Sequence record: PX423614.1 | Strand: one strand, 5' to 3' | DNA: 64,000 nucleotides | DNA from: a phage | Shown: positions 1,869 to 15,278 of the stretch, in pieces | Layout of the letters: every line of letters starts with the position of its first letter | Numbering within the stretch: position 1 is the first letter of the stretch | Notes under the pieces: model-generated | Told to the model about the DNA's origin: nothing | The model's database searches: none | The model's input: only the letters and a program-made list of their open reading frames with translations | Position numbers and translations under genes: made by a program

Positions 1869-2819
1869 ATGTCAATCTCCGCATCGATTGCTCCGGTAAC
1901 ACCGGCAGAGGATTTCGGTGAGTCAGTGTTCAAAGGAAGAGCTTGCTTTGGTACTTTTAACTGTATGCACATGTATTCTGTTACAGACATTAACGGTGAA
2001 AGTCGTAACCGAACAAGCCTTCGTGATAGAACTTCAGAAATTGAAGTTATTAACTTCTGGCCTCACAATTTTTATGGCGTACCAGCTAAAGATATCGAAA
2101 GAGCTTTGGTTGAAGCAACAGACATTTTTAACTCAATGTCTTGCTATAAAGATATGTTCTCTGTCACTTCGGTGAACTCTATTGCCGTGAACCTTCGAAA
2201 CCATCCAGCAGACAAGGTGTTTACTGGACTAATGACCATCCGTAGCTATTTGGATGGTGATTTTAATGGAATGGAGTTCCTTCAGGAAGGCGTACAAGAC
2301 AAGGAAGAGTTGCTTAAGCGACAACGAATCGGTTTAGCTCTACGCCTAGCTGGTTTAAGTCGTAACTTCTTTGGTCGCTGGTGTTATAGTAATGACGTAG
2401 ACTCAACTGATGAGTCAGCAGCGACTTATTTTGATGGTGACATGAGTGCAATTGCATTTCTGCCACTAATTTGCACCACTGATGAATTTTCTGAAAACGT
2501 ATGGGTTCAGAATGTGTTCGGTGTTGATGATAACCGAGATGGTTATGTACGAAACCATAATGATGGAGTTCTCCGTCGTATGGCACGTCGTCGTGACCAA
2601 GACCCTGACCATTACGAGAGTATGAGTGAATGGTTACGTCTCTGGTCAACTTGTGCAGGTCACAAGAGAGAAGTATTAGATCAGCGTATGGATAGAATTA
2701 CTGTTCGTAGTTTTATTGAACGTCTGATGCAAGCAGTACCTTCCTCAATGACACCAGAAGAAGCTGGTGCCCGTGTTGTTTCCCTTTTTGATGAACTCGT
2801 GGAGTATTACAATGACTAA
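1869..2819 (+). CDS. hypothetical protein (316 aa)
   Basis: ORF track; stop TAA overlaps the next ATG (ATGACTAA). Confidence 0.6.
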   Translation: MSISASIAPVTPAEDFGESVFKGRACFGTFNCMHMYSVTDINGESRNRTSLRDRTSEIEVINFWPHNFYGVPAKDIERALVEATDIFNSMSCYKDMFSVTSVNSIAVNLRNHPADKVFTGLMTIRSYLDGDFNGMEFLQEGVQDKEELLKRQRIGLALRLAGLSRNFFGRWCYSNDVDSTDESAATYFDGDMSAIAFLPLICTTDEFSENVWVQNVFGVDDNRDGYVRNHNDGVLRRMARRRDQDPDHYESMSEWLRLWSTCAGHKREVLDQRMDRITVRSFIERLMQAVPSSMTPEEAGARVVSLFDELVEYYND

Positions 2820-3618
2820 GCGCGCTTTCCTTATTGGCTCTGACCCTGAAATGTTTGTTCGTACTGCTTCCGGTATTATCACCTCTGTGGCTGGTAAGCT
2901 GGGCTGTTCTAAAGATAATAAAATTGATCTGGCTCCTGATGTTCGTCTTCAAGAAGACAACGTTCTGGCTGAGTTTGATATTAACCCACAGAAAGGGTTT
3001 GAAGCGTTTGATGATAATATTCAGCGTGGTATTGATCTGACTAACAAAGTTCTCAATGAACGTGGCATGGAGGCAGCACTTGGGATTAGCTCTCATGTGT
3101 TCACTTCAGAAGAACTTGAATCATTCCACCCGTCAGCTTTTGTATTTGGCTGTACTCCTGATTTCAATGCCTTCACTGGACAAAAGAACCCTTCACCAGT
3201 CGCAACTGATAAGGGTTTGCGTACTGCTGGGGGTCATGTGCACCTTGGTGTCTCCGGGACTTTAGAGATTACTCGACAAACTCAAATGATGTTGGGTGTG
3301 TTGTGTGATTACTTCCTGTCCTTGCCAGCTGTGATCATGGATAAAGACACTCGTCGTAAAGAGTTGTACGGAAAGGCTTCTGCCATTCGCTACAAAGATT
3401 ACGGTATTGAATATCGTTCTCTTTCTAACTTCTGGATTGGTGATAAGTCCACTCGCAAGTTTGTTTATGAGCAAGTGGATAAGGTTGTTCAGGGTTGTGA
3501 TATGGAAGTGTTGATGTCACTTCACTCTCGCCTTCCAATTGAAAAGCTTCACAACATCATCAACAGCAACGATGTTAAAGAAGCGGATAAATTCTCCTCT
3601 AAACTCCAGATTGTATAA
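2812..3618 (+). CDS. hypothetical protein, possibly divergent amidoligase-like
   Basis: ATG at 2812 (MTKRAFLIGSDPEMF) overlapping upstream stop; GSDPE and GGHVHLG motifs loosely reminiscent of carboxylate-amine ligases; product assignment weak. Confidence 0.55.
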   Translation: MTKRAFLIGSDPEMFVRTASGIITSVAGKLGCSKDNKIDLAPDVRLQEDNVLAEFDINPQKGFEAFDDNIQRGIDLTNKVLNERGMEAALGISSHVFTSEELESFHPSAFVFGCTPDFNAFTGQKNPSPVATDKGLRTAGGHVHLGVSGTLEITRQTQMMLGVLCDYFLSLPAVIMDKDTRRKELYGKASAIRYKDYGIEYRSLSNFWIGDKSTRKFVYEQVDKVVQGCDMEVLMSLHSRLPIEKLHNIINSNDVKEADKFSSKLQIV

Positions 3619-3627
3619 GGTGATATT

Positions 3628-4254
3628 GTGAGCTTGTTAAGAGATTTTCAACACTATTATTGTGGAACATGGATTGCTCAGCGATCACCTGATGGTAAAA
3701 ACCTCCCTCTATATGTGCTTGATGTTCGTCAGCAAGGTAACTTTGATATCGACGACTATTCACACGACGCTGAAATGTCTTTAGTGTTTGAGGCGGAACG
3801 CTGGACTAAAAACTCTGAAGGTCAGTTTGAACGTCAGGTTGTTAGTAATATCCCAGTGTTTGATCACAGCCTCATTCTGGAGTCTCCAGATGTAGGATAC
3901 CTTCAGCATGGTAATAACATGGTGAGCTGGACCCATATCAACCCTGTTCGTCAGCGAGCTAAAGGCTTGATGGGGAATAAACTTCGTGGTGCTCCGCCTT
4001 CTCTCGGACGTTCGATTCCGGGTGATTTGGTGTACAACCTGTTTAATCCAGAGTTTGAAGGGTTGGTTACTCGTTTCATCTATATCAATCCTGTCGATGG
4101 AAAAGTTTATTACAAAGGAGCTTACGTTGGAAACGTGCTTCTTGAAGCTGGTTATGGCGACAATGGTCGTCAATCTTTAAACCTTCTGGAGAAGTTCAAG
4201 CATATTTCTTCAGACCTGTCATCATATAATGTAGAGTTGGTGGAATCATTATGA
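3628..4254 (+). CDS. hypothetical protein (208 aa, GTG start)
   Basis: ORF track; stop overlaps next start (ATGA at 4251). Confidence 0.5.
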   Translation: MSLLRDFQHYYCGTWIAQRSPDGKNLPLYVLDVRQQGNFDIDDYSHDAEMSLVFEAERWTKNSEGQFERQVVSNIPVFDHSLILESPDVGYLQHGNNMVSWTHINPVRQRAKGLMGNKLRGAPPSLGRSIPGDLVYNLFNPEFEGLVTRFIYINPVDGKVYYKGAYVGNVLLEAGYGDNGRQSLNLLEKFKHISSDLSSYNVELVESL

Positions 4255-5351
4255 CAACCGTAGCACAAGTTTTTGGATACCGTAACCCTCGCTTATCTGA
4301 ACCGCATCCAAGTATTGCTTTTCAGTGTGGTGTTGGTATTGAGTTAGAAGTCGAAGGTACAACTGACATTGACGCTGATATGTGGGTTTGTACTGAAGAT
4401 GGCTCTCTTCGTGATGGTTGTGAATTAGTATGTGCACGACCTTACAACGGTGAAGAACTACTTCGTGCTATTAACAATCTGAGTGAAGCAGTACAGGATT
4501 CCGGAGCCGAGGGAACTTGGCGCTGCTCCACTCACGTTCATATGGATATGCGTGACGCTGATAGTAATATCCTTAAGAAAGTTATTCTTGGATGGACGTT
4601 CTATGAAAAGATGATGTTCAAATGTTCTGGATACCATCGCTATCGTAGCAACTTCTGTCCAGCTTTTGCTGTCGTTCAAGCACAAGTTATGAATGCTTCG
4701 TCAGCGTTCAACCGAGACGGGGAAGCTTTCTTCCACTCTCTTGTTAATAGCTGGGATAAATATACCTCCCTTAATCTTTTGCCTCTATCTCAATTTGGTT
4801 CTGTTGAGTTCCGTATCTCAGAGCCGAAGTGGAAAAAGAGCCAACTTCTGAATCTGGTCAACCGCTTCTTGGTTCTCAAGAAACTGGCTGTTGAATATGC
4901 AGATTTAGACAATGAAGCTTATGTTGAGAAGTTGAATGAGCTGCGCTTCGCTCCTATGATTCAACATCTACCCCTAGACTATACTCCAAGAGACAGCGAT
5001 CTCACTGAAGGGTATCGTCTTGCTCGTGATATTCTCTTCTGTCGTGAGCAATCTGTAACTTTGGTTGGTCGTGTTCGTGTGCAACAGACTGGCCCTGATG
5101 GTGAAGTCCTTATCAACTTACGTGATATGAATGACTTCTATGGTTTCTTGGGATATGTGCGCGGTAATGCCAACAGTGTCTACGAAGAGATCATGACCTA
5201 CTACACCCCTCAGATTGAAAGCACTCGAATCGCAACGGTTCGTGAAATTCGTCACATATTTGCATTGATGCGTGAATCAGGTAGCAGTGATGATAACGTC
5301 ACTGGTTATATTCCAGACCATCTGGAAATGCAATTAGAACGACTGCTGTAA
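4251..5351 (+). CDS. putative amidoligase (COOH-NH2 ligase, glutamine-synthetase-like superfamily)
   Basis: N-terminal GVGIELEVEG, EDGSLRDGCELV and CSTHVHMD motifs resemble the phage/bacterial amidoligase family; assignment from memory of family signatures. Confidence 0.5.
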   Translation: MTTVAQVFGYRNPRLSEPHPSIAFQCGVGIELEVEGTTDIDADMWVCTEDGSLRDGCELVCARPYNGEELLRAINNLSEAVQDSGAEGTWRCSTHVHMDMRDADSNILKKVILGWTFYEKMMFKCSGYHRYRSNFCPAFAVVQAQVMNASSAFNRDGEAFFHSLVNSWDKYTSLNLLPLSQFGSVEFRISEPKWKKSQLLNLVNRFLVLKKLAVEYADLDNEAYVEKLNELRFAPMIQHLPLDYTPRDSDLTEGYRLARDILFCREQSVTLVGRVRVQQTGPDGEVLINLRDMNDFYGFLGYVRGNANSVYEEIMTYYTPQIESTRIATVREIRHIFALMRESGSSDDNVTGYIPDHLEMQLERLL

Positions 5352-5428
5352 CACAACGGGCGCTCTTATACAGGGCGCATTTAAAGGTTAATTAGATGAA
5401 AGGGTTTACCCTTCAGGTGGATTAGAAA

Positions 5429-7462
5429 ATTTGTGGTATCGTATTAGCTGGCGGCAACATGACCTCAGCAGATTTGGACATTTTCAACCAACTTCTGTAT
5501 GCTGGTGTTTTCCGTGGACAGCACTCAACTGGTGTGTTTGGTCAGCGTAAAGGTGAAAAGCAAGTCTTCTCTTATAAAGAAGCTCTTCCTTCTTATGCTT
5601 TTATGCTCCAGACAGAATATACAAATATTACCAAAGGGCTTACGAACTACGTAGTTCCTCCTTCGTGGATTGTTGGTCACAGCCGACATGCCACTCGTGG
5701 GGCTGTCAATGCTCGAAATGCTCACCCATTTACTCACGGGGATATTACTCTGGTTCATAATGGAACCCTGTTAGATCAAGATCTCCTTCCTGACAGTAAG
5801 CGTTTCGAAGTTGATAGTGAAAACATCTGCCACTCAATTAACACCATTGGAGCAGCAGAGACTATCCAAAAACTGGATGGTGCATTCACTTTGATTTGGC
5901 ATGATGCTAAAGACAACACGCTTCACATTATCCGTAATGATGAGCGTCCTTTCCACCTAGCCCGCTGTGGTTTGGATTGGTTTGGAGCTTCTGAAGAAGC
6001 TATGCTTATGTGGATTTTAGAGCGTTCTAAGTCCCATAAGAACCGTATCAATGACCACTTCGAATGTAAAGTGGGAACTGAGTATATCTTTGATGTGTCT
6101 AACAGTCGTATGACTCTGGTTCAAGAGGTGGAGCACACGCTTCCGGTTTTTACGGTAACGAGTCGCTGGGGCGGCTATTACTCGAACTCCTCTCTTTATC
6201 AGAACCAACAGACAAACAAATCAAGCAGCAGCACAAGCGACATTTACGGAAACAAAGACGACAAGCCCGGCGTGACAAGCGGAGACATTCGTCGTCGTAA
6301 AGCGATTGAAGACCAGAACAAACTGGCTGCCGATCGTGGTCTTCCTTATCGTCGTGATGGTCGTGTGGATATTATTCCTCATGAGTTCCATGCTTATAAC
6401 AACACAGATCGTGGTAAGATGGTTGGTTACATCTACGATGATAAAGCTCAAGAGTATGTCGAAGGGGATGTTCACAACGTAGCCAAAGATGAATATCTTA
6501 AGGCTCTTGAAAACCCAAAGGTAGTATATCGCGGGACGATTGCTTGTATCTCCGAAGTGGACAGTATGATTCGCCTCGTACTAACTTCAGGGCTGTTTGT
6601 TGATGCTACAGATAAGGAGCCTCAAAGCACTACTGCTGATTTTGATGATGATATCCCTTTTGATGCAGAGGACTCCTTCATCACTAAGAATGGTGTAGAA
6701 GTCACTCGTAAGTTCTGGGAATCTCACTCTCATGGTGACTGTGGTGGTTGTGATAAGCACATTGACTGGAAAGATGCTCGTAAGGCTGTGTTTGCTTATC
6801 AGGCATACTGGCATCCAGAATGCTTCGAAGCGTTATCTAAAACCTCTGAAGAGGAAGAAGATGTGCCTTTGGGTGTATGTGCTATCTGTGGTGAAGTCAA
6901 GACTGATTTCGAGTTTGACAACGAAATGAGTAAACTTCGTGGTGAAGACGTTTGTTATATCTGCTCCAAAGAAATCAAAGATAAAGTAAAGAATGTTACT
7001 CTATCTGAAGGTTATATTTGGACTAAAGCAGTAGACACAACCAACCCACGTCGTCCTGAAGTAGCTGTTCGTGTTGATGAACGTATGCTTAGCCGTATGA
7101 TTGTAATGGTCAGCTCAGCAAAACGTTCAGGGGATATTACACTTGCAGATGTTCCTAATTCGTATTTGGAAAAACGTGGTGGTGATACTTATGCCATCTC
7201 TGTTTATGGTCCAAAGAATTCCCCAAAGGAGGTACCCGCTGAGAAAGCGGAGACATTTCCAGAAAAGTCAACCTCTCTCCGAAAAACAGTTGTCAGTTAT
7301 GATGGACAACGAACAGCTGAGTTTACAAAAGCCCTCTGGACTTCAATTGGGTTTTGTGCAGTCTGTTATAAACAAATTCCGTGGCGTGATGCAGAAACTT
7401 GCTCACTGAACAAAGAAAACAGGGTGATCTGTAATTCAGATTACTGTAAAGGTAAACACTAA
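5429..7462 (+). CDS. class II (Ntn) glutamine amidotransferase with C-terminal multi-CxxC zinc-ribbon extension; probable ATT start
   Basis: In-frame CGIV immediately upstream of the ATG at 5459 (TAG-AAA-ATT-TGT-GGT-ATC-GTA); AGGTGG RBS 8 nt before ATT 5429; HSRHATRG...NAHPF...HNGTL motifs typical of PurF/GlmS/AsnB-type GATase; C-terminal CGGC/CAIC/CYIC/CAVC pairs. Confidence 0.7.
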   Translation: MCGIVLAGGNMTSADLDIFNQLLYAGVFRGQHSTGVFGQRKGEKQVFSYKEALPSYAFMLQTEYTNITKGLTNYVVPPSWIVGHSRHATRGAVNARNAHPFTHGDITLVHNGTLLDQDLLPDSKRFEVDSENICHSINTIGAAETIQKLDGAFTLIWHDAKDNTLHIIRNDERPFHLARCGLDWFGASEEAMLMWILERSKSHKNRINDHFECKVGTEYIFDVSNSRMTLVQEVEHTLPVFTVTSRWGGYYSNSSLYQNQQTNKSSSSTSDIYGNKDDKPGVTSGDIRRRKAIEDQNKLAADRGLPYRRDGRVDIIPHEFHAYNNTDRGKMVGYIYDDKAQEYVEGDVHNVAKDEYLKALENPKVVYRGTIACISEVDSMIRLVLTSGLFVDATDKEPQSTTADFDDDIPFDAEDSFITKNGVEVTRKFWESHSHGDCGGCDKHIDWKDARKAVFAYQAYWHPECFEALSKTSEEEEDVPLGVCAICGEVKTDFEFDNEMSKLRGEDVCYICSKEIKDKVKNVTLSEGYIWTKAVDTTNPRRPEVAVRVDERMLSRMIVMVSSAKRSGDITLADVPNSYLEKRGGDTYAISVYGPKNSPKEVPAEKAETFPEKSTSLRKTVVSYDGQRTAEFTKALWTSIGFCAVCYKQIPWRDAETCSLNKENRVICNSDYCKGKH

Positions 7463-7473
7463 GAGGTATAGTT

Positions 7474-7707
7474 ATGGAAGTTCGTAAACTGATGTTGGAT
7501 AACGTGGTAACTACCCGCCGTATTCCGATGACAAGCACAGGATGTGATAACCTCCGAGCAATTCAGAAGTGGATGCAAGAAGGTATTGGGAAGCTGGTTG
7601 ACTCTCCAGTAGAAATCCCTTTTCCAACCGTTATCAATAACGTGTTGGCTGACTATGTTAAAATGAAGGGGATTAAAGTTGAGCCTCATGTCAAGCAAGG
7701 GAGCTAA
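7474..7707 (+). CDS. hypothetical small protein (77 aa)
   Basis: ORF track; RBS-like AAGAGG upstream. Confidence 0.4.
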   Translation: MEVRKLMLDNVVTTRRIPMTSTGCDNLRAIQKWMQEGIGKLVDSPVEIPFPTVINNVLADYVKMKGIKVEPHVKQGS

Positions 7708-7909
7708 GCCTCACCTGACAATGCTGGAGTATCAACAACTCCGACTTCAACAACTGGTAACGGAGCAGCGAAAGCTGTATCCGTTTGCTTTTAACTTAAT
7801 CGACTCTCCAAGCGATGCCCAAGAAGACGAAATGTTCGCTGAGTATTGGGCAATCGAAGCTAAAATTCAATCCTGTCGTAACGAAATTCTTAAACTAAAA
7901 GGTATCTAA
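7679..7909 (+). CDS. hypothetical small protein (76 aa or shorter)
   Basis: ORF track; overlaps previous ORF, true start may be internal. Confidence 0.35.
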   Translation: MSLMSSKGAKPHLTMLEYQQLRLQQLVTEQRKLYPFAFNLIDSPSDAQEDEMFAEYWAIEAKIQSCRNEILKLKGI

Positions 7910-7911
7910 AA

Positions 7912-9147
7912 ATGACTACTCGTATCCGTGTTCTTCCGTATGGCCCGTCTGATTCTGTTAACGCTCTGGTATCTGCTATCAGTGATACTATCCGTGATGA
8001 ACGCATCAATGCTAACGTGATGGGGCTTCTTTCAGAGAATAGCCGCTGGCGTTCTCGTGAAGGTGATGTGGTTGTTAACTACGGGAACCGTCGCTATCCT
8101 GAATCATTCTTTGGTTCTGCAACCGTCCTTAACCGTACCGCAGCCTTATATATGGCAGCGAACAAACGTCGTGCTTTCAGTGTGATGGACCAAGCAGGTG
8201 TTAAAACTGTGGAATACACAGATGTTCAAGAGACTGCTCAGGAGTGGTCAAACACTGGTAATATTGTGTATGAGCGCCATGAGCTGACTGGTCACTCTGG
8301 TTCGGGCATTGTTGTTGTAGAACCGGGTGATTCAATTGGTCAAGCTGAACTGTACACCAAAGGTATTCAAGGCCCACGTCGTGAATGGCGTGTCCATGTG
8401 TTCAAAGGTGTAATCACCTATGTTCAGAAGAAGATTCGTCGCAATGGTTATCGCGAAGACCCTAACTATCGTGAAGATATTCGTAATCACCACACTGGCT
8501 GGGTTTACTCAAGCTCCTTCACAGATGCTCCGAATGACGCCTCTCTGATCAATGCAGTGAAAGCTGTTGAATCAATGGGTCTGGATTTCGGTGCAGTTGA
8601 TATTATCACCAAAGGTCAAGAAGCGTGGGTACTGGAAGTTAATACAGCACCGGGCCTGACTGGTACAACTCTGGATACTTACCGTCATAACATTCTTGAG
8701 TTTGTTAAAGCTCAAAACCCTCTCTATACTCCTCAGTATAAAGTGGTTTACCAGACTCCGATTGAAGATGGAGACGGTGAGTTGGTGGATGATATTGAAA
8801 GTGCTGATGATGAAAACTTTGCACTGGAAGGACAAGTAGCACAGCCGATTGATTCAGTTGATGTGGTTCCTGAAGAAATGCAACTGGAAGGTCAGATGAA
8901 TACTCAAACTATTCGTAATGCACCTACTGGCTACACTTTGTCTCGTGGCTACTGGATTGCAAATATCCGTCATGTCCACAACAACCTGCAACCGAATGCA
9001 ATGTCTGCCAATGTCATCCTGTTCTGTGATGGTCGTAACTTCTACCGCAGTGGTTGGAACGTTCCGGTCAATCCAGTCCAGATTCATAACCCTCGCAAGT
9101 TAGAGTCTGTCAATGTTGAAGGTAGCGAAGTAGCAGTAACTCTGTAA
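7912..9147 (+). CDS. ATP-grasp family ligase (RimK/glutathione-synthetase-like)
   Basis: C-terminal half shows GxDxxxxxG...WVLEVNTAPGL, the characteristic ATP-grasp E-V-N-x-x-PG region, plus basic-loop region RREWRVHVFKG. Confidence 0.6.
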   Translation: MTTRIRVLPYGPSDSVNALVSAISDTIRDERINANVMGLLSENSRWRSREGDVVVNYGNRRYPESFFGSATVLNRTAALYMAANKRRAFSVMDQAGVKTVEYTDVQETAQEWSNTGNIVYERHELTGHSGSGIVVVEPGDSIGQAELYTKGIQGPRREWRVHVFKGVITYVQKKIRRNGYREDPNYREDIRNHHTGWVYSSSFTDAPNDASLINAVKAVESMGLDFGAVDIITKGQEAWVLEVNTAPGLTGTTLDTYRHNILEFVKAQNPLYTPQYKVVYQTPIEDGDGELVDDIESADDENFALEGQVAQPIDSVDVVPEEMQLEGQMNTQTIRNAPTGYTLSRGYWIANIRHVHNNLQPNAMSANVILFCDGRNFYRSGWNVPVNPVQIHNPRKLESVNVEGSEVAVTL

Positions 9148-9173: not shown

Positions 9174-9416
9174 ATGTTGTCTATCGAAGATTTGATCAGC
9201 CGTGGAATGACCGAAGAAAAAGAGCCTCTGATTGTAGGCTCTCGTAAAGCTATCAACCAACTCTGTGAAGAGTTCGGTATCACAAATAAGAGAATGATTG
9301 GTAATCAGTTCTCTGCAATCATCACCTTCCTCAAACGAGGTGATAAATGTTCAATGGAATGTGCTGAGCGTATCATCGCAATTGCACAAGCAGATAAGGG
9401 AGTAACAAGTCTGTGA
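9174..9416 (+). CDS. hypothetical small protein (80 aa)
   Basis: ORF track. Confidence 0.4.
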   Translation: MLSIEDLISRGMTEEKEPLIVGSRKAINQLCEEFGITNKRMIGNQFSAIITFLKRGDKCSMECAERIIAIAQADKGVTSL

Positions 9417-10280: not shown

Positions 10281-10712
10281 ATGTCTGATAAAGTATTAGT
10301 TGCAACGTATGGTTCTCTTCGTAAAGGTCAACACAACCACGCTATCAATGCTCGTGCAGGTGGTGTGTCTATTGGTGAAGGGTGGACAGTAAACAACTGT
10401 AACCTGTATCAGTATTGCACAGCATACTTCCCAAGTGTATCTTTGGAGCATGACAGCAATGGTAAGCCTGTTCGTGTAGAAGTCTTTGAAACAACCCAAG
10501 CTGGTCTGGAAGGTCCGTATGACGGTCTGGAAGGTCATCGTGGTAATGATAACCCATACACCTTTTACAAGCGTACACTGATTCCAGTATTATTGGACAG
10601 CGGTGAAACTGTGGAAGCGTGGATTTATCACATCGACGAAGAACAAGATGTTCTGGTTGAATCTGGTGACTGGACAGCATATCTGGCAGGTGAGAAGGAT
10701 GACAGTAACTGA
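10281..10712 (+). CDS. gamma-glutamyl cyclotransferase-like (AIG2/GGCT fold) protein
   Basis: N-terminal YGSLRKGQHNH matches the YGSL-x-x-G-x-x-NH signature of GGCT/AIG2-like enzymes. Confidence 0.5.
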   Translation: MSDKVLVATYGSLRKGQHNHAINARAGGVSIGEGWTVNNCNLYQYCTAYFPSVSLEHDSNGKPVRVEVFETTQAGLEGPYDGLEGHRGNDNPYTFYKRTLIPVLLDSGETVEAWIYHIDEEQDVLVESGDWTAYLAGEKDDSN

Positions 10713-13275: not shown

Positions 13276-14748
13276 ATGATTAAGATTCCATTGTCTGAAT
13301 TGAACCTTCAAGAAGGAGAAGCCCTCAGTGTAGGGCTTGACCTGATTCGTAATTTGATCAGAGATAACGTAGTCCCTGATGGCATCTATCCTGTTATTGC
13401 AGGTGGTGCTATCCGTGATACGTTCTTCCAAAATAGAACTCCGAATGATGTTGATATCTTCCTAGTTCAAGGAGGGTTTCGTTGGAACACTCGTCAGGAA
13501 AACAGCCCTGCTAACGTAGGTAATGCTGCACTTTTCCTTGACAACTTCTTATCTTGGACAGAAAGTAAGGGGCTTCAGGTTACATCTCGACTAATTCAGC
13601 CTGTTAACGGGACAACCTATGCTGAAGCGCTTTTCACTTTCCAAGAGATTCTGGAAATTGAGATTGATCAAGTTAAAATCCAGATGATGATTAATCTACC
13701 TTTGGATATGGATACTTTAAGCCGTCGCTTCCCTATGATCTGTCAAGGGTTTATGACTCTTGGTAATCTGTATGTGTCAAACGAAGGTTTGTTTGCAATG
13801 TCATACACTCGTGACATTCCTGTGGTATCTAGTCGTGAAATGAAGTACGTTCACAAGAAGTGGCCTGAAGCAACTGTTGCAGTTTATAGCAGTTCTACCG
13901 AATATATGCACCTTGCAATGGGAGCTTTCGGTGAGCCAGAAGTTCACCTGATTAGTGATTTAGTTGGACCTATGGCTGGTGTAAATTTATATCAGAATCA
14001 GCGTCGTCATTATACCCTGAAGATGATGGAAACTATATTAAACATTCCTCAGGAAAGGGGTCGTAGTTATCTGGACGAGGAAGTTAACCTACAGACAGAA
14101 TGGTCTAGTGGATTAACCACTATAGGTGCTGAAGCAATCACGCAGCCTTGGACTCCGGGAACTAACAGACGAGATCTTCAAGCTTTTAATGAAGAAACTT
14201 CTCGAACAGTTCGAGGAGGTGTTGTAGGGTATAACGTACAACCTCATGAAAGACCTCGTGACACTTTCACTGGCAGTTTTGGTAGTGCACGCTCTTCTGG
14301 AGTGGATACTCGTACATGGCATGTCCAAGGAGGAACTGCTCGTCCTATTCCCTCTCCGTCAATGGATGATTTGCAGCGTTCTCGTCGTTCATGGGAAACA
14401 GTAAGCTCTGTTGTTCAGGGTCTACGTGCTAGAGATATTGAACGTGTAGAAGTTGGTGATTTGCCAACCCCTACAGAAGATCGAGTATCAGCTATAGCGG
14501 CTCGTGAAGCTGCTCATATTGGTTTTGCATCATTAACTAATGACGCTAACGAAGCTCCTCGACCTGTTGGTCGTCGTAATGGTCTAGCTCACTCTGACAC
14601 TGCACTTGGTGCAGAACTACGAGCAGCAGCTCGTGAGCTATCTGGTGAGCTTCACAACAACCTAGCAGGTGTTACACTATCTCGTGAAACAGCTCGTAAT
14701 ATGATTAATAATTTGGCATCATCTGTACAAGGAAACAGAAACTCATGA
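13276..14748 (+). CDS. Pol-beta-superfamily nucleotidyltransferase (CCA-adding/poly(A)-polymerase-like head) with disordered R/S/G-rich C-terminus
   Basis: AGGAIRD-x13-DVDIF fits the G[GS]-x9-13-DxD nucleotidyltransferase motif; C-terminal ~200 aa low complexity. Confidence 0.5.
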   Translation: MIKIPLSELNLQEGEALSVGLDLIRNLIRDNVVPDGIYPVIAGGAIRDTFFQNRTPNDVDIFLVQGGFRWNTRQENSPANVGNAALFLDNFLSWTESKGLQVTSRLIQPVNGTTYAEALFTFQEILEIEIDQVKIQMMINLPLDMDTLSRRFPMICQGFMTLGNLYVSNEGLFAMSYTRDIPVVSSREMKYVHKKWPEATVAVYSSSTEYMHLAMGAFGEPEVHLISDLVGPMAGVNLYQNQRRHYTLKMMETILNIPQERGRSYLDEEVNLQTEWSSGLTTIGAEAITQPWTPGTNRRDLQAFNEETSRTVRGGVVGYNVQPHERPRDTFTGSFGSARSSGVDTRTWHVQGGTARPIPSPSMDDLQRSRRSWETVSSVVQGLRARDIERVEVGDLPTPTEDRVSAIAAREAAHIGFASLTNDANEAPRPVGRRNGLAHSDTALGAELRAAARELSGELHNNLAGVTLSRETARNMINNLASSVQGNRNS

Positions 14749-15278
14749 GTCTTTTAGGTTCTCAAGAATTACACAGCGTTATCGATAATGGCTTTTTAGA
14801 TGCGGAGCATAAATATGTTAACGCTGCTAGCGTGGATATCCGTATTGGTGATACTATCCTTGTTGAAGAACAGGCTGATGGTATTGTTGACATTGATGCT
14901 AAAGAAAACCTCAAGTGGAAAGAAGTGAAAATCCCTGAAGATGGCATTGTCATTACTCCGGGACAGTTCTTCTTAGCTCACTCTATGGAAGAATTTAACC
15001 TTCCAGACAATATTTCAAGTCTGTTTGTACTCCGCTCCTCAATGGCTCGTTGTGGTTTAAACCACTTACATGCTGGGTGGGCTGATGCAGGGTTTAACAG
15101 CAGTAAGCTAACCTTTGAGTTCCATAACGTTACCCACAATCACAGCTTACGAGTTCGTGCTGGGATGCGTGTTGGTCAAATGGTTATGTTTGAACACTCT
15201 CACGCTGGTGATGATTCCTATGCAGTGAAGGGTCGTTATAATAACTCTGATGGGGTTGTTGCTTCTAAAGGCGTATAA
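14745..15278 (+). CDS. dcd: dCTP deaminase / dUTPase-family protein
   Basis: SVDIRIGD, LRSSMARCGL, GWADAGFN and GMRVGQMV resemble Dcd motifs (VDVRLG, GRSSLARLGL). Confidence 0.7.
   Translation: MSLLGSQELHSVIDNGFLDAEHKYVNAASVDIRIGDTILVEEQADGIVDIDAKENLKWKEVKIPEDGIVITPGQFFLAHSMEEFNLPDNISSLFVLRSSMARCGLNHLHAGWADAGFNSSKLTFEFHNVTHNHSLRVRAGMRVGQMVMFEHSHAGDDSYAVKGRYNNSDGVVASKGV

Follow-up and report, generated by a model that had tools for sequence, protein, structure and literature searches.

Class II amidotransferases are textbook two-domain enzymes in which an N-terminal cysteine is the nucleophile and ammonia is channelled in cis. What, then, stands in for the synthase half in a phage member of this class that appears to lack one? 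The question is raised by an amidotransferase gene at positions 5429 to 7462 of the 64,000-nucleotide stretch of phage DNA PX423614.1 (the whole stretch is called the window here), whose product continues for some 430 residues past its glutaminase domain. This extension is predicted to comprise an OB-fold barrel, an acidic linker bearing a motif known from the tail of SSB, the bacterial protein that binds single-stranded DNA, and treble-clef-like metal units. We give an even chance to its being a non-catalytic docking scaffold for the glutaminase.

The window belongs to a phiEco32-like, C3-morphotype Escherichia coli podophage of the Gordonclarkvirinae, and the amidotransferase gene is the orthologue of phiEco32 gp83. 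The phage is assigned on the basis of identities to named relatives: the 2,004-nucleotide open reading frame (ORF) shares 99.8% identity with its counterpart in Escherichia phage IME267, 97–99% with those in SU7, EK010 and two BASEL phages, Bas86 and Bas87, and 88.5% with that in ECBP2, and the protein has about 62% identity with phiEco32 gp83. At least 247 homologues of the protein are found at E ≤ 0.001; the conservation counts given below come from an alignment of 92 sequences, with homologues 29–64% identical to the query. The gene, its glutaminase domain and the gene cassette around it are already known from comparative genomics. In contrast, the architecture of the extension and its SSB-tail motif are covered by no curated family, and the literature consulted on the cassette, which postdates its 2009 source paper, does not describe the OB barrel, the three zinc units or the SSB-like motif. 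The protein itself has been detected by proteomics in SU10-infected material (PMC4281155).

The layout of the gene is as follows, with residues numbered throughout from the ATT codon at 5429 (ATG-based numbers are 10 lower).

5429..7462, plus strand: full gene from its ATT start, 677 amino acids; ICGIVLAGGN precedes the first ATG at 5459
5459..7462, plus strand: the ORF as listed from the first ATG, 667 amino acids
5429..6169, plus strand: class II (N-terminal nucleophile, Ntn) glutamine amidotransferase (GATase) / gamma-glutamyl hydrolase domain, residues 1-247
6170..6277, plus strand: disordered Ser/Asn/Gln-rich linker, residues 248-283, of variable length in the family; predicted local distance difference test (pLDDT) below 50 for 248-281
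6278..6604, plus strand: helix (284-302) and five-stranded OB-fold barrel (310-392), acidic
6605..6673, plus strand: acidic disordered linker with DFDDDIPF, residues 393-415; pLDDT below 50, net charge -8
6638-6661, plus strand: the motif DFDDDIPF within that linker, residues 404-411
6674..6847, plus strand: zinc unit 1, residues 416-473; C438, C441, H462 and C465, ligands kept in 90/92; conserved W430 and I445
6848..7006, plus strand: zinc unit 2 with a long helix at its end, residues 474-526; C484, C487, C509 and C512, ligands kept in 88-89/92
7007..7228, plus strand: clade-specific basic alpha/beta insert of 74 residues, 527-600; pLDDT above 90, isoelectric point (pI) 9.5
residues 601-617: linker between the insert and zinc unit 3; pLDDT below 50 for 601-615
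7280..7462, plus strand: zinc unit 3, basic (pI 8.9), residues 618-677; C643, C646, C668 and C673, ligands kept in 82-85/92

The N-terminal domain matches Pfam GATase_6 (E 2.6e-14), and its model retrieves in Foldseek the GlmS glutaminase domain (1xff, E 1e-12) together with PurF, AsnB and EgtC; the matches to 1xff, 1ao0, 6gq3 and 4zfj lie between E 1e-12 and 1e-9, and the model has the four-layer alpha-beta-beta-alpha arrangement of the Ntn fold. Invariant in the family are C2, R29-G30, G83-H84-x-R86, T89, H110-N111-G112 and D129. By analogy with GlmS and PurF, such conserved residues hold the alpha-amino and alpha-carboxylate groups of glutamine or of a gamma-glutamyl group and form the oxyanion hole. 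Since C2, R86, T89, N111-G112 and D129 are all invariant, the domain retains all that such binding and attack on the amide require, and it is predicted to hydrolyse glutamine or else, like EgtC, a gamma-glutamyl amide.

Searches of Pfam, NCBIfam, PADLOC and PDB sequences gave no match above threshold past residue ~247, and no fused synthase or acceptor domain was found there. The glutaminase domains of GlmS, PurF, AsnB and GltS share with the phage protein a common fold, the N-terminal cysteine, the invariant arginine, the Asn-Gly oxyanion pair and the aspartate, but the phage protein has no SIS, PRTase, Asn-synthetase or other synthase domain, and 430 residues of OB barrel, linker and zinc units in its place. 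The NCBIfam models for GlmS, PurF, AsnB and EgtC reach 16–41 bits against cut-offs of 219–418, and only in the N-terminal domain. The gene appears in GenBank as 'hypothetical protein', 'glutamine amidotransferase' or 'L-glutamine-D-fructose-6-phosphate aminotransferase'. An identity as GlmS was rejected: residues 2-194 alone match, at 41.4 and 33.7 bits where 381 and 418 are required, and there is no match to the two SIS domains that make up the C-terminal part of GlmS. Because these scores fall below the cut-offs and are confined to the N-terminal domain, the GlmS-type product name is an over-annotation. The EgtC-type gamma-glutamyl hydrolases resemble the phage protein in having an Ntn domain without a fused synthase (Foldseek E 1e-9), and their pathway uses a GCS2-type gamma-glutamyl ligase, just as the phage cassette contains GCS2-like ligases and a gamma-glutamyl cyclotransferase. 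However, EgtC is a single domain of ~230 residues with no OB/zinc scaffold, and the phage protein scores only 16 against the NCBIfam EgtC cut-off of 219.

The initial annotation had placed the extension at about 250 residues starting near nucleotide 6700; it is considerably longer, ~430 residues beginning at nucleotide ~6170, where the GATase domain ends near residue 247. The cysteine motifs on which that annotation rested lie exactly where it put them, four C-x2-C pairs (CGGC at nucleotide 6740, CAIC at 6878, CYIC at 6953 and CAVC at 7355) and a C-terminal CNSDYC at 7430, and they are not a product of chance: composition-preserving protein shuffles yield a mean of 0.41 CxxC against the 4 observed (P(≥4) = 4.5e-4). 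An HPEC sequence (H462/C465), which the initial annotation had overlooked, completes the first site and brings the ligand positions to 12, which read as three putative four-ligand sites, CCHC, CCCC and CCCC. Column 462 holds Cys in 65 and His in 25 of the 92 sequences, alternating as a metal ligand would. Most relatives have a plain CxxC where CNSDYC, longer by two residues, stands in the phage protein, and C658, outside the sites, is unconserved (37/92). Given the conservation of the ligands, the Cys/His exchange, the confident fold (pLDDT >90) and purifying selection, the cysteine pairs almost certainly form structural metal sites, to judge from alignment and model, and the metal is most likely zinc.

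The description of these modules as zinc-ribbon-like holds for the conserved four-ligand sites and fails for the ribbon. A zinc ribbon has two beta-hairpin knuckles and a three-stranded sheet; in the model, as read from DSSP strings rather than coordinates, the first CxxC of each unit sits in a tight turn between two bridge residues, and the second pair (H462/C465, C509/C512 and C668/C673) starts a helix. The units are thus modelled as treble-clef or LIM-like. The resemblance to LIM fingers extends to the C2HC and C2C2 sites with a knuckle and a helix N-terminus, but the matches are weak apart from a PINCH profile: Pfam LIM scores, that of unit 1 included, are sub-threshold (16.9–18.5 bits against a gathering cut-off of 22.9; E 0.0025), and the PDB profile match to a PINCH LIM domain (E 1.7e-6) is register-shifted, spanning the end of unit 1 and unit 2. 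Membership of the LIM family was rejected, the phage fingers being 18 residues apart instead of 2 and the Pfam scores below the gathering cut-off; units 1 and 3 moreover add a beta-beta-alpha(Trp) element at their N-terminus and an Ile-Pro-Phe/Trp motif.

Units 1 and 3 are paralogous (hhalign probability 98.8%, E 9e-17) and share the consensus G..(V/F)T.K.W....C..C...IP(F/W)..A........C..C, which in unit 3 includes the conserved W637 and I650-P651-W652; unit 2 is unrelated to either by hhalign. Conservation in the units falls on Trp, Ile-Pro-Phe/Trp and Asp/Glu-Ala and not on basic residues. Unit 3 is missing in ~7 homologues, and some distant members have extra units: four such homologues (P0099, P0118, P0119 and P0120) include further W..C..C..IPF copies, and two of them (P0099 and P0118) carry a different extra unit with the motif CxxCGxxHSVY(I/V)RTGNM...W.

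Run with the 92-sequence alignment, AlphaFold2 reaches a mean pLDDT of 86.4 over the whole chain and of 89.2 over residues 282-677, with folded parts mostly above 90. The barrel is modelled as a closed five-stranded one with a helix between strands 3 and 4, as an OB fold should be. It carries a net charge of -6 (family median -4), and throughout the family a low median pI (4.4–4.9) marks barrel, unit 1 and unit 2 as acidic. Its aromatics are conserved and it has no conserved basic residues; a conserved cluster comprises Y323 (89/92), Y343 (74/91), E345 (78/91) and H349 (78/91). The order GATase, linker, helix, OB barrel, linker, unit 1, unit 2, (insert), unit 3 is kept throughout the family, the insert being confined to the enterobacterial clade (~30/92 homologues).

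The ratio of nonsynonymous to synonymous substitution rates (dN/dS) against ECBP2, at a dS of about 0.45–0.9, is 0.07 for the GATase domain, 0.05 for helix and OB barrel, 0.06 for unit 1, 0.11 for unit 2, 0.07 for the insert and 0.05 for unit 3. All folded parts are under purifying selection, as strong in the extension as in the catalytic domain. The extension therefore does not look disordered or dispensable, given folds with pLDDT >90 and dN/dS of 0.05–0.11, so that computation does not bear out the outcome that would have refuted the initial annotation. Searches of limited power did not find the C-terminal module outside the amidotransferase family: Pfam, NCBIfam and PADLOC, applied to extension fragments and to all members of the C-terminal fragment set, returned only sub-threshold generic zinc-finger matches; phmmer with residues 414-677, run on 1.84 billion representatives, yielded no more than four family members and a spurious Calx-beta repeat protein (P0121); and a BFVD fold search, dominated by the OB barrel, gave family members and weak generic OB matches only.

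What might such an extension do? The suggestion that it targets the enzyme to nucleic acid or to partner proteins is plausible from the sequence, and we favour docking of a partner or substrate. A gp83-type protein would be the glutamine-hydrolysing or gamma-glutamyl-cleaving component of a peptide-ligase cassette, its Ntn domain binding free glutamine or a gamma-glutamyl moiety whose amide would be attacked by the N-terminal cysteine. The OB barrel, the motif-bearing acidic linker and the treble-clef metal units would replace the synthase domain, with a zinc array in which two paralogous units flank a third, plus the clade-specific insert. Zinc units and barrel would hold the glutaminase beside a separate acceptor enzyme or a macromolecular substrate of the cassette, and ammonia delivery, or gamma-glutamyl removal, would occur in trans. 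We infer this docking role, and the partners with it, as the simplest reading because there is no synthase domain in cis and three ATP-dependent ligases are encoded next door. It is further supported by the flexible linkers, by the LIM-like geometry, which is of a protein-binding type, and by the duplication of units 1 and 3 and the variable unit number, as expected of a modular adaptor.

Several observations weigh against the docking scaffold. The individual domains are modelled with confidence but their mutual arrangement is not (predicted template modelling score 0.46 for the full chain and 0.38 for residues 282-677), leaving the inter-domain geometry doubtful. Binding of nucleic acid, too, is a classic role of OB folds and Cys4 fingers, and unit 3 and the insert are basic (pI ~9). 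The conserved E345, H349, Y323 and Y343 on the barrel could be a ligand or catalytic site and not a docking surface. Lastly, the metal is named from its ligand pattern, to which rubredoxin-like iron would also conform.

In the main rival reading, a rather unlikely one, the OB barrel, the basic unit 3 and insert, and the SSB motif would bring the enzyme to DNA, tRNA or RNA at the replication fork, where the cassette would build or trim an amide-containing base or end modification. The barrel's best structural neighbours are indeed nucleic-acid-binding OB/S1 domains (DNA ligase OB, Rpb7, Rrp4 and SSBs), DFDDDIPF is the interaction hub motif of SSB (PMC5872125), and the cassette abuts primase-helicase, exonuclease, nucleotidyltransferase and dCTP deaminase genes. 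Gordonclarkvirinae are, moreover, reported to be remarkably resistant to restriction with no known DNA modification pathway (PMC11990801), and in viromes the genes for thymidine hypermodification are accompanied by amidoligase and amidotransferase genes without an assigned role (PMC8989533). However, barrel, unit 1 and unit 2 are acidic, with aromatic or acidic residues as the conserved ones, and conservation in the zinc units likewise does not favour basic residues, which is why docking is preferred over nucleic-acid binding. The SSB-like motif is limited to one clade, whereas the zinc/OB architecture is family-wide; no 5-hmdU kinase, aGPT-Pplase or hydroxymethylase is present in the annotation of the closely related Bas87 genome; and in the literature (PMC5498523, PMC10580990) the cassette is proposed to modify peptidoglycan or peptides.

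The extension could instead be a new kind of acceptor (synthase-side) domain, a site on the barrel and/or the zinc units receiving ammonia within one polypeptide. In the class II amidotransferases characterised to date, the acceptor domain is present in cis, and the polar and aromatic cluster of the barrel would offer such a site. We hold this to be quite unlikely: searches of the extension yielded no catalytic motif or fold, nucleotide-binding or otherwise, long disordered linkers separate its domains, and the three separate ATP-dependent ligases alongside are more obvious acceptors. Most unlikely of all is that the Cys4 sites bind iron, as in rubredoxin, or act as a redox or regulatory switch. 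CxxC...CxxC pairs are indistinguishable by sequence from rubredoxin-type sites, and single members show scattered sub-threshold rubredoxin or Fe-S matches; yet one site is CCHC in this clade, typical of zinc and not of rubredoxin, the modelled geometry of a knuckle and a helix N-terminus is that of a zinc treble clef, and the weak matches are mainly to LIM.

If the family has exchanged its synthase half for a zinc-studded docking scaffold, as we favour, trans delivery to separate ligases or action on a macromolecule is implied. The cassette has been known from genomics since 2009 without an experimentally known product, and it occurs in many groups of podophages that serve, or are being considered, in therapy (phiEco32-like, LUZ24-like, 7-11-like and marine RIO-1-like phages). 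The map of the scaffold provides handles on partners and substrate, namely three predicted zinc sites, the conserved Tyr/Glu/His patch of the barrel and the exact SSB-tail motif.

This last motif deserves separate attention. The DFDDDIPF of the amidotransferase linker is identical to the last eight residues of E. coli SSB (171-178; 1eqq_A). The pattern D[DE]1-3[ILVM]PF is kept in 20 of 25 members of the enterobacterial clade and in one other, usually preceding Asp or Glu, in a linker that otherwise varies in length and sequence, and among shuffles such a motif appears at a frequency of 2e-4. It is found in no other real ORF of the window, nor was a phage SSB with a matching tail found there. 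A blastn search of the stretch against 5,426 E. coli genomes retrieved only the 24-nucleotide tail-coding part of plasmid ssb genes (E = 8), which is insignificant alone but confirms the identity of the motif. Through DDDIPF, its interaction hub, SSB contacts numerous proteins of replication and repair (PMC5872125, PMC3632105). In bacterial SSB and in the phage protein alike, an acidic disordered segment with DFDDDIPF comes after an OB barrel; the two differ in that the SSB tip is at the free C-terminus, whereas the phage motif is internal (404-411 of 677) and followed by Asp, leaving it without the free carboxylate that SSB partners recognise. The phage barrel is also acidic and has no sequence similarity to SSB. 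The barrel was accordingly rejected as an SSB homologue, hhalign aligning just the 8-residue motif, and the resemblance is mimicry at most, not family membership.

Such mimicry is possible, judging from the peptide. It is very unlikely, in our estimation, that the OB-linker-DFDDDIPF(D) arrangement mimics the host SSB tail and plugs the cassette into the SSB network of the replication fork, for replication-coupled modification of DNA or replisome proteins or for titration of SSB partners. If this were true, modification by an SSB mimic could be the missing explanation for the restriction resistance of the Gordonclarkvirinae.

The genes surrounding the amidotransferase make up the phiEco32-type cassette.

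2767-3618, plus strand: COOH-NH2 ligase type 2 (PF14395, a Pfam family that takes its name from phiEco32)
3628-4254, plus strand: phrog_4877 protein of ~200 amino acids (PHROGs)
4251-5351, plus strand: Amidoligase_2 (Pfam PF12224)
7474-7707, plus strand: DUF7195, next after the amidotransferase
7679-7909, plus strand: phrog_13464, a small protein (PHROGs)
7912-9147, plus strand: RimK-like ATP-grasp ligase
10281-10712, plus strand: GGACT gamma-glutamyl cyclotransferase-like protein

Two unknown proteins precede the COOH-NH2 ligase, and primase-helicase, exonuclease, nucleotidyltransferase and dCTP deaminase follow GGACT. The ligase type 2, Amidoligase_2, class II amidotransferase, ATP-grasp and GGACT genes are co-linear; all partner families of the phiEco32-type cassette are present and syntenic, the gene studied here being its amidotransferase. 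The description of this cassette reportedly originates with Iyer et al. 2009 (Mol Biosyst). Later literature traces it to that paper and proposes peptidoglycan or peptide modification, as a proposal only (PMC5498523, PMC10580990, PMC6256558).

Eight related loci were examined for synteny. Distant relatives, including Salmonella phage SE131, Vibrio phage SJSY21, a Bacteroidales-binned contig and a number of contigs from metagenomes, retain the order ligase, ~200-aa protein, amidoligase, amidotransferase, DUF7195, ATP-grasp. At all eight loci the first annotated family downstream of the amidotransferase is DUF7195, directly adjacent in seven and, in the eighth (L010), after frameshifted zinc-region ORFs. 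It is a candidate partner or substrate of the amidotransferase. DUF7195 proteins (73-85 aa) carry a VEIPFPT motif in the window and in L010, the two sequences compared. The arrangement in L010, a metagenomic relative with GATase and OB barrel in one ORF and the three zinc units in another of 167 aa (L010 9150-9736), was rejected as a natural split and is probably a frameshift, an A-run lying nearby and linker-like sequence continuing in the second frame; it plays no part in the arguments made here.

The start of the gene bears directly on its catalytic competence. Upstream of the first ATG and in frame with it stands TAG AAA ATT TGT GGT ATC GTA, in which the codons after the stop and AAA read (I/M)-C-G-I-V, and MCG(I/L)V is the N-terminus of most of 120 homologues among the matches listed. 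Together with the Shine-Dalgarno sequence AGGTGGA (5415-5421), 7 nucleotides upstream of ATT, and the annotation of phiEco32 gp83 and Bas87_0079 from the same ATT, this identifies ATT 5429 very probably as the true start. Only from there is the catalytic cysteine first after the initiator Met; a start at ATG 5459 deletes the nucleophile. The ATG start is used in several GenBank records, for example that of ECBP2 and those of a 667-aa cluster (P0001). The analysis corrects this start call along with the misleading 'GlmS' annotation.

Immediately upstream lies a conserved leader.

5381..5428, plus strand: conserved leader with the motif TTAAAGGTTAATTAG, a mini-ORF, a hairpin and the Shine-Dalgarno AGGTGGA
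ATG (5396) to TAG (5423-5425), plus strand: leader mini-ORF encoding MKGFTLQVD and a stop
AAGGG (5400-5404)-TTTA-CCCTT (5409-5413), plus strand: leader hairpin

The 48-nucleotide leader is identical in phiEco32 while its flanks diverge. In three relatives with 42-43% protein identity, TAT replaces TAG and gene callers extend the gene to the upstream ATG; the start-adjacent codon in these three is ATT or TTG. The same relatives show two compensatory changes in the hairpin (AAGAG/CTCTT and GGGC/GCCC), and the putative peptide is altered. MKGFTLQVD, which is read through in some relatives, was accordingly rejected as a cleaved propeptide, the substitutions altering the peptide and keeping the RNA pairing. 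The conserved element is thus best read as an RNA structure beside the Shine-Dalgarno, and not a propeptide, on covariation from three sequences only. The folding energy of the hairpin is no better than that of shuffles, and as a repeated promoter the leader motif does not recur beyond chance.

Elsewhere in the window, the nucleotidyltransferase (490 aa) and dCTP deaminase genes lie at 13276-15278, adjoining the replication genes; the BASEL paper speculates that these two may underlie an as yet unknown modification of the DNA in these restriction-resistant phages. The GC skew changes sign near ~32000 (+0.17 to -0.23), consistent with a switch between two convergently or divergently transcribed arms of the genome. 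Just past the ATP-grasp gene, an 80-aa ORF at 9174-9416 occupies the position of phiEco32 gp79, which we take to be an inhibitor of host RNA polymerase.

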